Origin: an uncultured Candidatus Saccharibacteria bacterium
GTDB lineage: Bacteria > Patescibacteriota > Minisyncoccia > Minisyncoccales > JANBVM01
Assembly (NCBI GenBank): GCA_964514375.1
Contig: CAZEQH010000003.1
Span: 12 to 64,011 of the forward strand
Reading direction: 5' to 3'
Length of the DNA stretch: 64,000 nucleotides
Shown here: piece after piece, positions 14,342-63,917 of the stretch
Numbering within the stretch: the first letter of the stretch is position 1
Layout: every line of letters begins with the position of its first letter
The notes under the pieces: model-generated
The model's database searches: none
The model's input: the letters and a program-made list of their open reading frames with translations, nothing else
Told to the model about the DNA's origin: nothing
Position numbers and translations under genes: made by a program

Positions 14342-14407
14342 AATAAAGGATTTTATTGTTTTTATTATTTATGTCCTATCTATCGATAGGACAATGTAGG
14401 ACAAGAG

Positions 14408-14456
14408 GTTCGGAGTTCGGGGTTCGGAGTTCGAAGAAGGAAGTTCGAAGTTCGAA
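14408..14456. repeat. Tandem heptad tract GTTCGRR x7 (one unit degenerate)
   Basis: GTTCGGA GTTCGGG GTTCGGA GTTCGAA GAAGGAA GTTCGAA GTTCGAA. Related tracts occur at 17765..17786, 22797..22845, 43127..43149 and 63812..63839. Confidence 0.85.
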
Positions 14457-14466
14457 GACTAAATGA

Positions 14467-14599
14467 GGTAAGTGGTTGCAGGGTGGTCTTAAAGCCGGAG
14501 CGGGCATGGTTTTGCGGCTCTGCCGCAAAGAGCAAATGCCTTAAAGGCCTGCGAACTCTGCTCGCCGGGCAGAGCGAACGACCCTGAAACCAGCTTACC
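14467..14599. repeat. 133-nt GC-rich hairpin-rich repeat module 'S', copy 1 (candidate structured RNA)
   Basis: About three-quarters identical by eye to 22863..22995. Contains the perfect hairpin TTTGCGGC-TCT-GCCGCAAA, the hairpin CTCTGC-N7-GCAGAG, and a long closing stem GGTAAG..CAGGGT / ACCCTG..CTTACC. Confidence 0.8.
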
Positions 14600-14616
14600 G
14601 AACGACACGCTTCAGA

Positions 14617-17750: not shown

Positions 17751-17975
17751 GTTCAAATTTTAATGTTTGAAGTTCGATGTTACGAATCAATAATTCAGAC
17801 AGTTCTCGAGGGAGACGCTTCGCAGCCGAGCCCGGTCGTAGATAACGTTTCACTTCTAATAAACTGAGGCTCGGCGAGAAATAGAAGCAGCGGTGAAAAA
17901 GTAATTGTAGCTGTTTTAAGCCGACTTCGTGTCACCCTCGGCTGCAGCCTACGGGCGAGGCCCGAAAGAAATGAC
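17751..17975. repeat. Composite intergenic repeat block (degenerate heptads, 8-bp GC stem, module 'M' fragment)
   Basis: GTTTGAAGTTCGATGTTACGAA heptads. Stem GCCGAGCC (17825..17832) / GGCTCGGC (17868..17875). 17928..17963 CGTGTCACCCTCGGCTGCAGCCTACGGGCGAGGCCC matches 23003..23086 and the reverse complement of 63854..63917. Confidence 0.8.
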
Positions 17976-21531: not shown

Positions 21532-22749
21532 TCACGCCTTTCTTTTTCCTCTGCCGGCCGCCTTTAATACTCTGGCCATCAGCGTGATTTGTTTTATCGT
21601 ACCCAACCCTCCCTTACTGCATGATTTTTCGGAAAACTTCTTAACGTCATCTTCCGCCGCCCCGGAGATAAGAACAGGAATCTGCTCCTTGCAATGCCTC
21701 TTTAAAGAACAGCAGGTTGAATGGTCGCCCGTCACCACGATAATCGTATCTTTCAGCCTTAAAAATGGACCAAAGTGACTGTCTATCTTTTCTATGAATT
21801 TCTTTTTCCCTTTGAAATCTCCGTCTTCCGCCAGACTGTCCGTGGCCTTGATATGCAGAAAGACGAAATCATACTCCTTCAAGGCCTTAAGAACGGCTTT
21901 CACCTTGCCTGTCAGGTTAGTGGAAACCAGTCCGTTGGCTCCCTTAACCTTAAGCACCTTCATACCGAGAATCTCCCCTATCTGCTTATAGAGTATTTTG
22001 CCTGCAACACAGCAGGCCTTCAGGCCGTATCTTGCCGAAAATGAAGGTATCTTTCTGGGAGAGCTCGCTCCCCGCACTAAAATATAATTTGCCTGAGGCA
22101 GCCCTCTCTTTTTTCTGGCCTCGTTGAGGGGATGAACTTTTAAAATCTCGTGTGCTCTCTCTAAAAACTCATTCAATACCTGAGCCGTAAAGGCAGACTC
22201 CTTGCTTTTATCCAAGGGTACTATTTTAGTTACCCTGCTGCCCAAGTGCGCATAATGAGGGTCTCCGTCTGAAATTTTACTGCTCAATCTCTTACCCCTC
22301 ATCACTATACCCACCCTGTGTTCGCCAGCTGGCTTAATAAGGAAACTGACATTCTTTATTTTCATTCCGGATAAAGCCGCTACCAGGGGACCTGTCTCTT
22401 TTATCCTGCCTGCCCGACGGTTCACAATGTTGAGGTCCTTGCCGACGGTACTGAAATTTCCCCTCAAAGCCACGTCTCCTTTTTTAAGCTTGATACCTGC
22501 TCCCTTGGCAGTAAATATCCCCCTGGCTAACTCCAGTTTGTGGGGATTATATCCGAAAAGCGCAAAATGGGATTCTTCCGAGGTGGGAAGGGCTTTGGTA
22601 AAATAAGGGTCCAATAATCCGCATCGACCCTTTTGAGCCAAGCCGTCAAGATTGGGAGTAACTGCGGCCTCCAGGGGCGTACGGTTTTTGAGTTCTTTAA
22701 TGGGTTTATCTCCTAATCCGTCTAAGACGATAAATAGTATTTTGTTCAT
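21532..22749 (-). CDS. apgM: 2,3-bisphosphoglycerate-independent phosphoglycerate mutase, archaeal ApgM type
   Basis: MNKILFIVLDGLGDKP...LEAAVTPNLD metal-site motifs. I use the internal Met at 22749. The 113 upstream codons of the track ORF are translated repeat DNA. Confidence 0.85.
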   Translation of the reverse strand: MNKILFIVLDGLGDKPIKELKNRTPLEAAVTPNLDGLAQKGRCGLLDPYFTKALPTSEESHFALFGYNPHKLELARGIFTAKGAGIKLKKGDVALRGNFSTVGKDLNIVNRRAGRIKETGPLVAALSGMKIKNVSFLIKPAGEHRVGIVMRGKRLSSKISDGDPHYAHLGSRVTKIVPLDKSKESAFTAQVLNEFLERAHEILKVHPLNEARKKRGLPQANYILVRGASSPRKIPSFSARYGLKACCVAGKILYKQIGEILGMKVLKVKGANGLVSTNLTGKVKAVLKALKEYDFVFLHIKATDSLAEDGDFKGKKKFIEKIDSHFGPFLRLKDTIIVVTGDHSTCCSLKRHCKEQIPVLISGAAEDDVKKFSEKSCSKGGLGTIKQITLMARVLKAAGRGKRKA

Positions 22750-22789
22750 AAGCGGGTTCCCTCCTTCGCTCTCACGAGCTTCGGAAGGG

Positions 22790-23095
22790 CGAAGCGAGGT
22801 TCGAAGATTATATGTTATAGACTTCGAGGGTCGAAGATAATATGTATTCGGGGTTTTTGTGAGGTAAGCAGGTTTCAGGGTGGTCTTGAGGCCTGAGCGG
22901 GCACGGTTTTGCGGCTCTGCCGCAAAGAGCGAAGGATTCAACACCAGTGAGCTCTGCTCGCTGGGCAGAGCGAACGACCCTGGAGCCTGTTTGCCGAACA
23001 ATCGTGTCACTCTCGGCCGTAAACCGGACACGAGCGAGGCCCTCGGCTGTAGCCTACGGGCGAGGCTCGAGGGAACCGCCTGAAACACCTATAGA
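22790..23095. repeat. Composite intergenic repeat block (TCGAAG-containing units, module S copy 2, module M)
   Basis: 22801..22815 TCGAAGATTATATGT and 22831..22845 TCGAAGATAATATGT. Module S at 22863..22995. Module M at 23003..23086. Confidence 0.85.
22863..22995. repeat. 133-nt repeat module 'S', copy 2 (candidate structured RNA)
   Basis: Same length as, and collinear with, 14467..14599. The 19-bp closing stem is fully paired only if read as plus-strand RNA (15 Watson-Crick + 4 G-U pairs). Confidence 0.8.
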
Positions 23096-50770: not shown

Positions 50771-50799
50771 TTGACAATAAACTTAATAATTGATATAAT
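50771..50799 (+). promoter_or_regulatory. Consensus sigma70 promoter of rnpB
   Basis: TTGACA (50771..50776), a 17-nt spacer, then TATAAT (50794..50799). The P1 stem of RNase P RNA starts 6 nt downstream. Confidence 0.7.
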
Positions 50800-50804
50800 A
50801 GGGT

Positions 50805-51257
50805 GTCCTAGTAAGCTGGGCGATTACTCTTTTGATTATCTAATCAAAAGGGAGGAAAGTCCGAACACTCTCTCATGGCTGGAGCTAATGAGCTTATCTG
50901 CCATGGATAAAAGGGTAGGGGGTAACACCCCCCGGCTGAGAAGCCAGAGGTGCGAGCAGAGACGCCACGGTTCGAAAGAACTGAGGTATCCGATTACGGA
51001 TAAGCTGCCTATAAATGACCGCTCTGCGGGCAGGAAATGGCAGGTGAAACGGCTAAATCCTTATCGAGTGCAAGAACAAACCTCTGACAGGAAAAGGATA
51101 ACCATGTGTACCCAAAAGGTGCTTATATCCTACCTGCTGAGGGAAAAGTAGTTCGCAGGAGCCGTGAGGAGACTCGCGGCCAAGATAAATGATCGCCTAT
51201 CTCTTAGATTTATTCTGAGAGAAAACAAAATTCGGCTTATAGGCTTACTAGGACATC
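50805..51257 (+). ncRNA. rnpB: RNase P RNA (bacterial type)
   Basis: P1 pairing GTCCTAGTAAGC (50805..) with GCTTACTAGGAC (..51254). Conserved GGAGGAAAGTCCG (50851..50863) and ACAAAATTCGGCTTATAG near the 3' end. The ORFs 50732..51151 and 51164..51502 are therefore spurious. Confidence 0.85.
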
Positions 51258-51286
51258 AAAAAAACCCACTGGTAGTGGGCTTTTTT
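51258..51286. terminator. Bidirectional intrinsic terminator (rnpB / rnhA convergent)
   Basis: AAAAAAA-CCCACT-GGT-AGTGGG-C-TTTTTT. Confidence 0.75.
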
Positions 51287-51304: not shown

Positions 51305-51748
51305 TTAGAAAAGTTTATTTTCCTTCTCCTTTTCATCCAGAGCTTCGTTGACCAAGGCGTCTGCCTCCTTATTCTTTTCCCGCGAGACCTGCCTGAAAGA
51401 TACCTTCTGAAAATCCAATTTCAAATTCCACAGCTCAATAAAGAGTTTCTGAATTTTCTCATCCAGGATTTTATATTCCCCTTTGAGCTGTTTTACCAGT
51501 AGTTCGGAATCTGATGTTACAGTTATTTCGCTGGCCTTGGCCATTTTTTTCCCGAAGAGGTGCTTGAATTTCTGTAAGCCGAAAATAACCGCCTGATATT
51601 CCGCCTCGTTATTAGTCAGTCCTTCGCCCAGATATTGGGAATACTTTTTGAAAAACTGCCCCTTTTCGTTGCAAAAAACAACGCCCGCTGCTGCGGGACC
51701 AGGGTTTCCTCTGGAACCTCCGTCGGTGTATATTGTTATTTTCTTCAT
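51305..51748 (-). CDS. rnhA: Ribonuclease HI
   Basis: IYTDGGSRGNPGPAAAG and NNEAEYQAVI motifs, with the catalytic D/E/D pattern. Confidence 0.85.
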   Translation of the reverse strand: MKKITIYTDGGSRGNPGPAAAGVVFCNEKGQFFKKYSQYLGEGLTNNEAEYQAVIFGLQKFKHLFGKKMAKASEITVTSDSELLVKQLKGEYKILDEKIQKLFIELWNLKLDFQKVSFRQVSREKNKEADALVNEALDEKEKENKLF

Positions 51749-51852
51749 AAGTTCTTTATAAGATATTTCTTGAAAAGTTCTTTATAAGACAATTCTTGAA
51801 AAGTTCTTTATAAGATATTTCTTGAAAAGTTCTTTATAAGACAATTCTTGAA
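51749..51852. repeat. Perfect tandem duplication 2 x 52 bp (four 26-bp sub-repeats)
   Basis: 51749..51800 is identical to 51801..51852. Each copy is AAGTTCTTTATAAGATATTTCTTGAA + AAGTTCTTTATAAGACAATTCTTGAA, which differ at 2 positions. The distal copy encodes the last 14 codons and the stop of the DHH gene. The proximal copy fills the whole gap up to the rnhA ATG. Confidence 0.95.
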
Positions 51853-52959
51853 ATCTTCGAGATTACCATTTTTTATTCTGAAGCCGGAAGCTGCCGGATG
51901 ACCGCCGTAAGTAAGAACATACTCTTCGCACTTTTTCATAAGAGCTACGCTGTCAACGTCTTTAGGAACCCTCACCGTCCCCTGGCTTTCACTCTCCAGC
52001 ATCTTATAGATAAAAGTAGGTTTTGCAAATTCCCTGCATACTATAGAGGCAACTGAGGAGATAAGGGGATATTCCCATTCATAATCCCCTTCAAATATTA
52101 TGGGGCCTTTTTTCATAGCTAACCTTTTTTTCACCTCCAGAACGGTGTTCTCTATTTTTGCTTTCCTCTCTGCGTTTTTTTTCCTCAAGTCAAGGATTAT
52201 CTCCCGGGCCTTTTCTTCCGAAGAAACCGTTAACAGCCGGAAAGACGAAGGGAATCCCTGCTCCACATCCCTGACATTTAGAATGGAAATTATTTTATAA
52301 ACCTTCTGGTTGAGTTCGTATTTCTGCAAGAAATCAGCCGAGAATAAGGCCTTAATGCCCGGTCTCCAGGAATCTTTTAGATAATCCAGACCTTCCTCTA
52401 TAAACAACTCGTTTTCGTCCTCCTTGGGCATCATATCCGCCATGGTGGCCAGAGCCGTAAGCTCTATGAGGCTTTTCCTAAGACCGGCGCCCATCGCCTC
52501 TCCAAGCAGGGCTTCTGCGAGCTTGAAAACTACGCCGGCTGCGGCCAATTCCTTAAAGGGGTAATTGTCTCCCGGCTGTTTTGGGTCAACCACTATATCC
52601 GCCTCCGGGATGCGGTCCAAAATTTCGTGATGGTCCACCACTATCACGCTGAACCCCATCTGTCTGGCTTTTTTTATTTCAGTAAAATTACCTATACCGC
52701 AGTCAACAGTAATAAGGAGAGACGGGGCAAGTTTACCCAGGATACTGAGGGCATTCCCGGTAAGTCCGTATCCCTCCTTTTCCCTGTCGGGAAAATAAAT
52801 AGCAGAGATTTCTCCGCCTAAAGTCTTAATCGCCTCCTCTAATATGATAACTGAAGTTACACCGTCCAGGTCCGCATCTCCATAAAGGATTATTCTTTCT
52901 TTATTATCCTTCGCGGCCTCCCGAATGCGCTCCGCAGCTTTCTTCAGGTTCTTAATCAT
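51808..52959 (-). CDS. DHH/DHHA1 phosphoesterase (short RecJ-like / NrnA-like)
   Basis: ILYGDADLDGVTS, DCG, VVDHH and GGHPAASGF motifs. Confidence 0.8.
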   Translation of the reverse strand: MIKNLKKAAERIREAAKDNKERIILYGDADLDGVTSVIILEEAIKTLGGEISAIYFPDREKEGYGLTGNALSILGKLAPSLLITVDCGIGNFTEIKKARQMGFSVIVVDHHEILDRIPEADIVVDPKQPGDNYPFKELAAAGVVFKLAEALLGEAMGAGLRKSLIELTALATMADMMPKEDENELFIEEGLDYLKDSWRPGIKALFSADFLQKYELNQKVYKIISILNVRDVEQGFPSSFRLLTVSSEEKAREIILDLRKKNAERKAKIENTVLEVKKRLAMKKGPIIFEGDYEWEYPLISSVASIVCREFAKPTFIYKMLESESQGTVRVPKDVDSVALMKKCEEYVLTYGGHPAASGFRIKNGNLEDFKNCLIKNFSRNIL

Positions 52960-63706: not shown

Positions 63707-63811
63707 AACTCAAAGGGCCGGGAGAGTTAACTCCTAGGTAAGTCTATGTGAGTGCTGCCTCCCGGCCCAATTTTAATTATTACACACGGATTTTCAAAAA
63801 ACAACAAGAAA

Positions 63812-63917
63812 GTTCGAGGTTCGGAGTTCGGTGTTCGGTGTTTGCAATTAGGATTCAGGCGGTTGCCGAGGGCCTCGCCCGTAGGCCTAGCCTCCGGGCT
63901 ACGGCCGAGGGGGACAC
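63812..63917. repeat. Composite intergenic repeat block (heptads + inverted module M)
   Basis: GTTCGAG GTTCGGA GTTCGGT GTTCGGT (63812..63839). The reverse complement of 63854..63917 matches 23003..23086 (GTGTC-CTCGGCCGTA..GCCTACGGGCGAGGC..AACCGCCTGAA). Confidence 0.8.

Follow-up and report, generated by a model that had tools for sequence, protein, structure and literature searches.

The structured module that occurs twice in the window (the whole stretch of DNA that was analysed, 64,000 nt) probably represents a new family of MITE/ERIC/Correia-like intergenic repeats, here called element A, in one narrow lineage of ultra-small, Nealsonbacteria-like bacteria; we put the probability of this reading at roughly 60%. 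With the same confidence we describe the family as small, lineage-restricted, non-coding, GC-rich repeats of ~140 nt that are dispersed between genes and that behave as mobile repeats of MITE/ERIC type, not as a free-standing RNA gene. Names attached to homologues place the host near 'Ca. Nealsonbacteria', within the Patescibacteria/Parcubacteria, and literature searches turned up no account of repeats of this kind in the CPR. The five known copies occupy four independent sites, spread over two or three genomes.

Two collinear modules at 14467–14599 and 22863–22995 had been described in a sequence-only reading of this DNA, and they are true copies of one family. Their likeness runs a few bases past the closing stem (TGA/GG...CC/GAAY), and further in some copies. 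Comparison by blastn of 14464–14603 with 22860–22999 gave 83.7% identity over 141 columns (E 8e-37), so the likeness noted by eye stands, but the figure of about three-quarters was too low and becomes ~84%. All three long identical blocks that had been listed are present in both copies, as are the hairpins TTTGCGGC-TCT-GCCGCAAA and CTCTGC-N7-GCAGAG. Neither blastn nor a covariance-model scan with filters off, degenerate copies included, revealed a third copy in the 64-kb window. The full-length copies are as follows.

14464–14606, plus strand: element A copy 1, type I, full length 143 nt (covariance model 153.9 bits; blastn against copy 2)
22860–23002, plus strand: element A copy 2, type II, full length 143 nt (covariance model 159.3 bits)

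Chance similarity or an assembly artefact has next to no chance of explaining the pair. The source is a metagenome-assembled contig, and nothing else favours an artefact; against it stand the E value between the copies, the related copies in other samples and in another MAG, and the recovery of copy 1 elsewhere. An independent JGI assembly contains copy 1 identically, and a Logan assembly includes its start and then breaks inside the element. The independent assemblies exclude the artefact reading.

Element A is predicted to fold strongly on the plus strand, with −65.9 kcal/mol for copy 1 (z −5.0) and −73.0 kcal/mol for copy 2 (z −6.1) relative to dinucleotide shuffles; the minus-strand values are −58.1 and −48.5 kcal/mol, respectively. 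The RNAalifold consensus comprises four helices, in which the closing stem P1 encloses two branches, one formed by an inner helix P2 that surrounds the hairpin P3 and the other by the separate hairpin P4. P3 is TTTGCGGC-TCT-GCCGCAAA and P4 is GCTCTGCTC-GCY-GGGCAGAGC in the consensus. The termini are imperfect inverted repeats of 18–19 nt (GGTAAG...CTTRCC) that close the two-branched fold; the P1 arms read GGTAAG...CAGGGT and ACCCTG...CTTRCC, and every one of the five copies has 15–19 of these positions paired. In copy 2 the stem has the 19 of 19 pairs counted earlier, 15 Watson–Crick and 4 G-U on the plus strand. Two differences that had been read between the stems, a swap of T-A to A-T and a bulged G that becomes a C-G pair, hinge on how the arms are set in register about a 1-nt indel. 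The central 22 nt, thought to be completely different between the copies, turned out to be the 3' strand of P2, which still pairs with a conserved 5' strand. The parts of the fold are placed as follows.

14467–14484, plus strand: copy 1, P1 5' arm, pairing with 14581–14599 (one bulge, one G.A mismatch)
14511–14529, plus strand: copy 1, P3 hairpin (RNAalifold)
14555–14575, plus strand: copy 1, P4 hairpin (RNAalifold)
14581–14599, plus strand: copy 1, P1 3' arm (pair table)
22863–22881, plus strand: copy 2, P1 5' arm or terminal inverted repeat, pairing with 22977–22995
22882–22893, plus strand: copy 2, P2 5' strand, pairing with 22934–22945 (RNAalifold, pair table)
22908–22926, plus strand: copy 2, P3 hairpin TTTGCGGC-TCT-GCCGCAAA (pair table)
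22934–22945, plus strand: copy 2, P2 3' strand, the 'variable central segment' (RNAalifold, pair table)
22951–22971, plus strand: copy 2, P4 hairpin GCTCTGCTC-GCT-GGGCAGAGC (RNAalifold, pair table)
22977–22995, plus strand: copy 2, P1 3' arm (pair table)

Both window copies lie between minus-strand genes, and the neighbours are housekeeping genes throughout. Copy 1 separates the stop codon of a FabG-like SDR gene (14617) from the start of a DUF1858 gene (14341), and copy 2 separates the stop codon of enolase (23104) from the start of apgM, an archaeal-type phosphoglycerate mutase gene (Pfam annotations) whose true start at 22749 is preceded by GGAGGG. Across all sites, element A is found 4–110 nt past the stop codon of a minus-strand gene. 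Sigma-70-like promoters of the downstream minus-strand genes are predicted between element and gene at 14377–14350 and 22834–22807, and these are the sole promoter-like sites of the two spacers. The 64-kb window encodes no transposase, integrase, RAYT or stand-alone reverse transcriptase. Plasmid and phage collections held no DNA match to the element (blastn), and scans of viral contigs for its core patterns gave either no match or chance matches.

The expectation of further copies was borne out in part: three lie outside the window, one on a metagenome contig and two in a sister MAG, but the element is absent, by covariance model and nhmmer, from ~150 kb of relatives whose apgM products are 55–71% identical. 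An invariant 26-mer of the element, searched exactly, had 0 matches in GTDB species representatives and one in JGI metagenomes, on contig L001 (Ga0315536_1000555), where a full copy is flanked by an AmmeMemoRadiSam radical-SAM gene on one side and a Memo-like gene on the other, each encoded on the strand opposite to the element. This copy has three uncompensated mismatches inside P1. Outside its closing stem is a 9-nt inverted repeat, ACAAAGTGA / TCACTTTGT (L001, 2045–2220), whose 3' arm holds the stop codon of the radical-SAM gene. Contigs L017 and L022 are identical to known copies, L017 to that of L001. Extending the DNA beyond the window by ~1.6–2.8 kb per side via edge proteins yielded no new copy.

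The sister MAG, GCA_964566875.1 (hereafter species R), was recovered via apgM, which is 86% identical; its ThiI is 77% identical. Its copy upstream of apgM is a 104-nt form that has lost 33 nt internally and with them the whole P4 hairpin, and its second copy lies between MnmA and ThiI and continues on a neighbouring contig (L015/L016). In both, P3 reads TTTGCAG(T)-TTTTAA-(G)CTGCAAA, a double change from G-C to A-U. Contigs repeatedly end inside element A: both ends of the 4,983-nt species R contig L003 do so, as do L015 and L016, and L002 and L023, Logan and JGI contigs from the species of the window itself, stop there too. Repeats behave in this way in short-read assembly, which accounts for the breaks.

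A minus-strand ORF at 21532–23088, publicly called by JGI as P0001 with 518 aa, runs through copy 2 by a 113-codon extension of apgM across element A and a neighbouring repeat module, B. We rejected a coding role for the element because species R has in-frame stops and the copies differ by 1-nt indels; the 518-aa apgM call is an over-extension through repeats A and B.

Two subtypes of the element can be told apart. Type I (copy 1 and the L001 copy) has the flanks ...AATGA / GAAYGAY, and type II (copy 2 and the two copies of species R) has GGGGTYTYTGTGA / GAACAAT. Variants in P3 are common to each genome, but the subtypes cross genomes in P1 and in the flanks, a combination that points to concerted evolution or to a lineage-specific master copy as its probable source. 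Between species the copies are 83–90% identical, whereas four-fold degenerate sites of the window species and species R are 48% identical. Such a difference is not what neutral decay would leave; it implies that the copies are under constraint, evolve in concert or are still active.

Occupancy of the sites changes between the sister species. In the MnmA–ThiI spacer, species R has element A and the window has modules B and C without it; in the FabG–DUF1858 spacer, the window has element A and species R has module C plus a duplicated FabG 3' end in its place. Two sites are therefore filled in one sister species and empty of A in the other. Element A matches MITEs in its length of 104–143 nt, its non-coding nature, its terminal inverted repeats and its dispersed copies, which are present in one related genome and absent from another. 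No autonomous element sharing these termini came to light, and a search for a target-site duplication established none; the bases TGA and GAA that flank the element are invariant in all copies and may belong to the element itself or represent a 2-bp duplication of GA. AGACTAA occurs as a 7-nt direct repeat at copy 1 but at none of the others.

The spacers themselves are new. Gene order is kept in relatives with apgM 64–71% identical, where enolase and apgM overlap by 4 nt (ATGA; L020, L021 and L008) or stand ~50 nt apart (L004). In L020 the MnmA–ThiI spacer is 10 nt and that between a hypothetical gene and DUF1858 is 22 nt; the corresponding window spacers measure 354 nt (enolase–apgM), 249 nt (MnmA–ThiI) and 275 nt (before DUF1858). 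FabG is an extra gene of the window's lineage at the DUF1858 junction relative to L020. Because the same genes overlap or abut in relatives from which the element is absent, the spacers are lineage-specific insertions. Element A thus sits, in mosaic with other repeat modules, in insertions that split formerly coupled genes.

Two of these modules adjoin the window copies of element A.

14408–14457, plus strand: GTTCGRR heptamer-like run adjoining copy 1, recurring at 63803–63842 beside module B
23040–23073, plus strand: GC-rich repeat module B, sharing a spacer with copy 2 and 45 nt to its 3' side

The GTTCGRR run is a module separate from element A, as species R has it at this locus but lacks A there; it stands upstream of the DUF1858 promoter, and its species R counterpart is at about 3540–3580 of L015. 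Module B, with the sequence CCCTCGGCTGYAGCCTACGGGCGAGGCYCGA, has other copies at 17935–17968 (plus strand) and, inverted, at 63853–63910, and it is not significantly structured relative to shuffles. Module C is about 140 nt long. It occupies about 17795–17935 of the window, in the MnmA–ThiI spacer, and about 3290–3480 of L015 in the FabG–DUF1858 spacer of the sister MAG, where it is accompanied by a ~35-nt duplication of the FabG 3' end and by an N-run flanked by duplicated sequence. Elsewhere in the window, five tandem 26-nt units of TTCTTGAAAAGTTCTTTATAAGAYAW, in two alternating variants, span 51715–51870, covering the start of an RNase H-like gene (51305–51748, minus strand) together with sequence upstream of it, and could be operator or iteron-like. 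At 14350–14400 (minus strand), the predicted DUF1858 promoter is overlapped by GTCCTATCGATAGATAGGAC, a palindrome of operator type that has a half-site, GTCCTAC, close by; the sister MAG conserves a related arrangement.

Signals expected of an RNA gene were sought at the copies. As the sequence-only reading had stated, no conserved promoter lies upstream: neither copy has a sigma-70-like promoter on the plus strand. No terminator-like site was found at either window copy on either strand, and the two spacers that hold the element contain no canonical intrinsic terminator and no T-run after the stem. The RNase P RNA gene at 50808–51255 (plus strand) served as a positive control, with a 12/12 promoter, TTGACA-17-TATAAT, at 50771–50799 and a terminator at 51265–51279 made of a hairpin followed by a T-run. 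It is of bacterial type A, scores 105 bits, barely above threshold, carries large insertions, and is encoded opposite to nearly all genes. Several protein genes in the window also end in strong intrinsic terminators. At the gathering threshold, Rfam 15 matched only the RNase P RNA and four tRNAs in the whole window; around copy 1, at E values up to 10, only chance matches of ≤16.3 bits appeared, so that the check proposed earlier matched the element to no known family. Neither flank, 5' or 3', is conserved throughout the five copies. The suggestion of an independently transcribed antisense RNA is therefore not supported, as no copy has a promoter or terminator even though RNase P RNA has textbook ones. 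Its counterpart in the same reading, a REP-like dispersed repeat, is supported by the additional copies, the contig breaks, the gain and loss at sites, the deletion variant and the absence from more distant relatives.

We infer that element A spread, and may still spread, as DNA in the manner of MITE, ERIC and Correia elements, by means of a transposase or recombinase that would be encoded elsewhere. After insertion between co-directional genes it would be co-transcribed in the minus-strand operon RNA, where its long hairpin may have at most a cis role as a processing, stability or insulation signal. Several observations count against a mobile repeat. The plus strand of the element is opposite to both flanking genes at 4/4 sites, all of them between co-directional housekeeping genes. 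In the window the minus strand encodes 61 of the 63 long ORFs and the GC skew stays negative from end to end, and with such extreme strand bias gene-relative and replication-relative orientation are inseparable for any element there. Pair-keeping changes on both sides of helices and an excess of G-U over A-C on the plus strand would fit a selected plus-strand RNA fold. The window has no transposase, no target-site duplication was established, and the known copies number five at four sites. The identity of copies between species, far above that of four-fold sites, counts on this side as well.

A reading to which we give a small chance is that the copies are paralogous small structured RNAs made from the plus strand, antisense to the operons, and acting in trans or as antisense regulators. 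Plus strands fold better than minus strands in copies 1 and 2, and RNase P RNA shows that this genome, for all its minus-strand bias, does encode RNA genes on the plus strand. Pair statistics were taken from a hand-curated alignment of the five copies, MAFFT having misaligned the deletion variant and a composite copy. Standard pairs fill 205 of 223 helix cells (92%), compared with 32–49% when partners are slid by 1–3 columns, and 43 of 2000 column shuffles reach 92%. Both sides changed with pairing kept at one pair in P3 (G-C to A-U, both species R copies) and two in P2 (exchanges of G-C and A-U), and two P1 pairs show the series U-A / U.G / C-G. Sliding the partners gives 0–1 pairs changed on both sides instead of three, but with five sequences 863 of 2000 shuffles reach the observed count; mutation templated by a hairpin can be a further source of apparent compensation. 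On the plus strand, 16 cells at 10 positions are G-U and 4 cells at 3 positions are A-C. The strand-specific G-U signature claimed earlier is thus real as a count, but it is not significant (p about 0.1, a binomial estimate) once the G-richness of the plus strand (e.g., 49 G vs 35 C) is allowed for. Paired and unpaired columns are equally variable (31/96 and 13/47), which also speaks against this reading. In sum, compensatory changes and a plus-strand G-U excess are present, and with five copies they are not statistically decisive. Conservation far above the identity of four-fold sites is in favour of an RNA; the missing promoters and terminators, the variable flanks, the lack of an Rfam match, the copy entirely without P4, the position in spacers that are new insertions, and the absence from relatives with 64–71% protein identity weigh against it. 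RNA-level selection on the plus strand, which would make element A an undescribed ~140-nt class of branched ncRNA that multiplied in a Nealsonbacteria lineage and spreads like a mobile element, is improbable in our estimate. Such an ncRNA might, for example, regulate the invaded operons in antisense or serve an unlinked protein as its partner or guide.

A second alternative, compatible with the mobile-repeat reading and in itself rather unlikely, holds that element A is a domesticated cis-acting element of the minus-strand operon RNA. Its hairpin past the stop codon may protect the 3' end, serve as a processing site of RNase III type, or act as a terminator or insulator that uncouples the upstream gene from a downstream gene with its own acquired promoter; selection, beyond selfish spread, would then keep the element in place. 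The constant position, past a minus-strand stop and ahead of the sigma-70-like promoter predicted for the following gene, is what one would expect, as are spacers devoid of canonical intrinsic terminators in a genome that uses them elsewhere. Correia and ERIC elements are reported to act in cis as processing, stability or insulation signals. The minus-strand fold is still very stable (−48 to −58 kcal/mol), and sequence conservation is well above the neutral expectation. However, the wobble asymmetry favours the plus strand, as every G-U pair reads as an A-C mismatch in minus-strand RNA; no T-run follows the stem; close relatives express the same genes without any spacer; and one copy has lost a whole hairpin and another carries unrepaired P1 mismatches. 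On balance we retain the mobile repeat as the best reading.

The genomes of CPR/Patescibacteria are regarded as small and tightly packed, yet in this one narrow lineage a mosaic of repeat modules has separated translationally coupled housekeeping genes (enolase/apgM, MnmA/ThiI), and the downstream genes appear, from predicted promoters, to have gained their own. The family is a marker of recent genome dynamics that explains both the contig breaks and the over-extended apgM call, and it offers a test case for the co-option of structured repeats as RNA processing or insulation signals in reduced genomes. Were the ncRNA reading true, the compensatory changes, the G-U asymmetry, the uniform orientation and the conservation would be the first signs of function, and a fold expressed as plus-strand RNA would constitute a new RNA class.

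Several known systems were compared with element A and set aside. Integron attC sites share with it strand-asymmetric imperfect palindromes of 60–140 nt, a location directly past gene stops, and a variable centre. By inspection, however, the ends TGAGGTAAG...CTTRCCGAAC lack correctly placed R''/R' cores (RYYYAAC ... GTTRRRY) in either orientation, and the flanks are core housekeeping genes in conserved order, not cassettes. A diversity-generating retroelement (DGR) TR/VR pair was rejected by inspection, as the differences are not adenine-specific and both copies are intergenic; the only reverse-transcriptase-like Pfam match (RVT_3) falls on an RNase H-type protein. Likeness to a hammerhead, to group II domain V, or to C/D-box RNAs was rejected by eye. 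Multi-copy RNAs of Y-RNA-like or Qrr type resemble the element in length, in the end-to-end closing stem, and in helices with some compensatory change; element A differs by its lack of promoter, terminator and Rfam match, its whole-copy indel polymorphism, and its narrow phyletic range.

Closer parallels come from the structured repeats of other bacteria. REPs are simple hairpins of 20–40 nt with a conserved GTAG-type head and a link to RAYTs, whereas element A is a branched structure of 140 nt in a window without a RAYT; a REP/REPIN–RAYT system was rejected on the grounds of this branched fold, the lack of a near-perfect doublet palindrome, and the lack of a Y1-transposase-like gene in the window. 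ERIC/IRU elements (about 127 bp) and BIME/REP elements nevertheless share with it imperfect palindromes in transcribed intergenic regions past stop codons, conservation in related species, and mosaics with other modules (in this case modules B and C and the heptamer runs). Both ERIC and Correia elements come in size classes, full-length and internally deleted. The Correia elements of Neisseria (NEMIS/CREE), which are bacterial MITEs, are known for their size, terminal inverted repeats, dispersal, size classes and co-transcription, and in each respect element A is comparable: both are non-coding, roughly 105–155 bp long, closed into a long hairpin by inverted repeats, and dispersed in short intergenic regions near genes in full-length and internally deleted classes. 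They are also alike in proposed behaviour, in that both would be co-transcribed and would offer their stem as a processing target. The two share no sequence similarity, and no counterpart of the TA target duplication of Correia elements was established for element A, which further differs in its imperfect arms, an interior that forms conserved hairpins of its own, and its Patescibacteria host. In kind, element A joins the known structured intergenic repeats of bacteria; the family is new.
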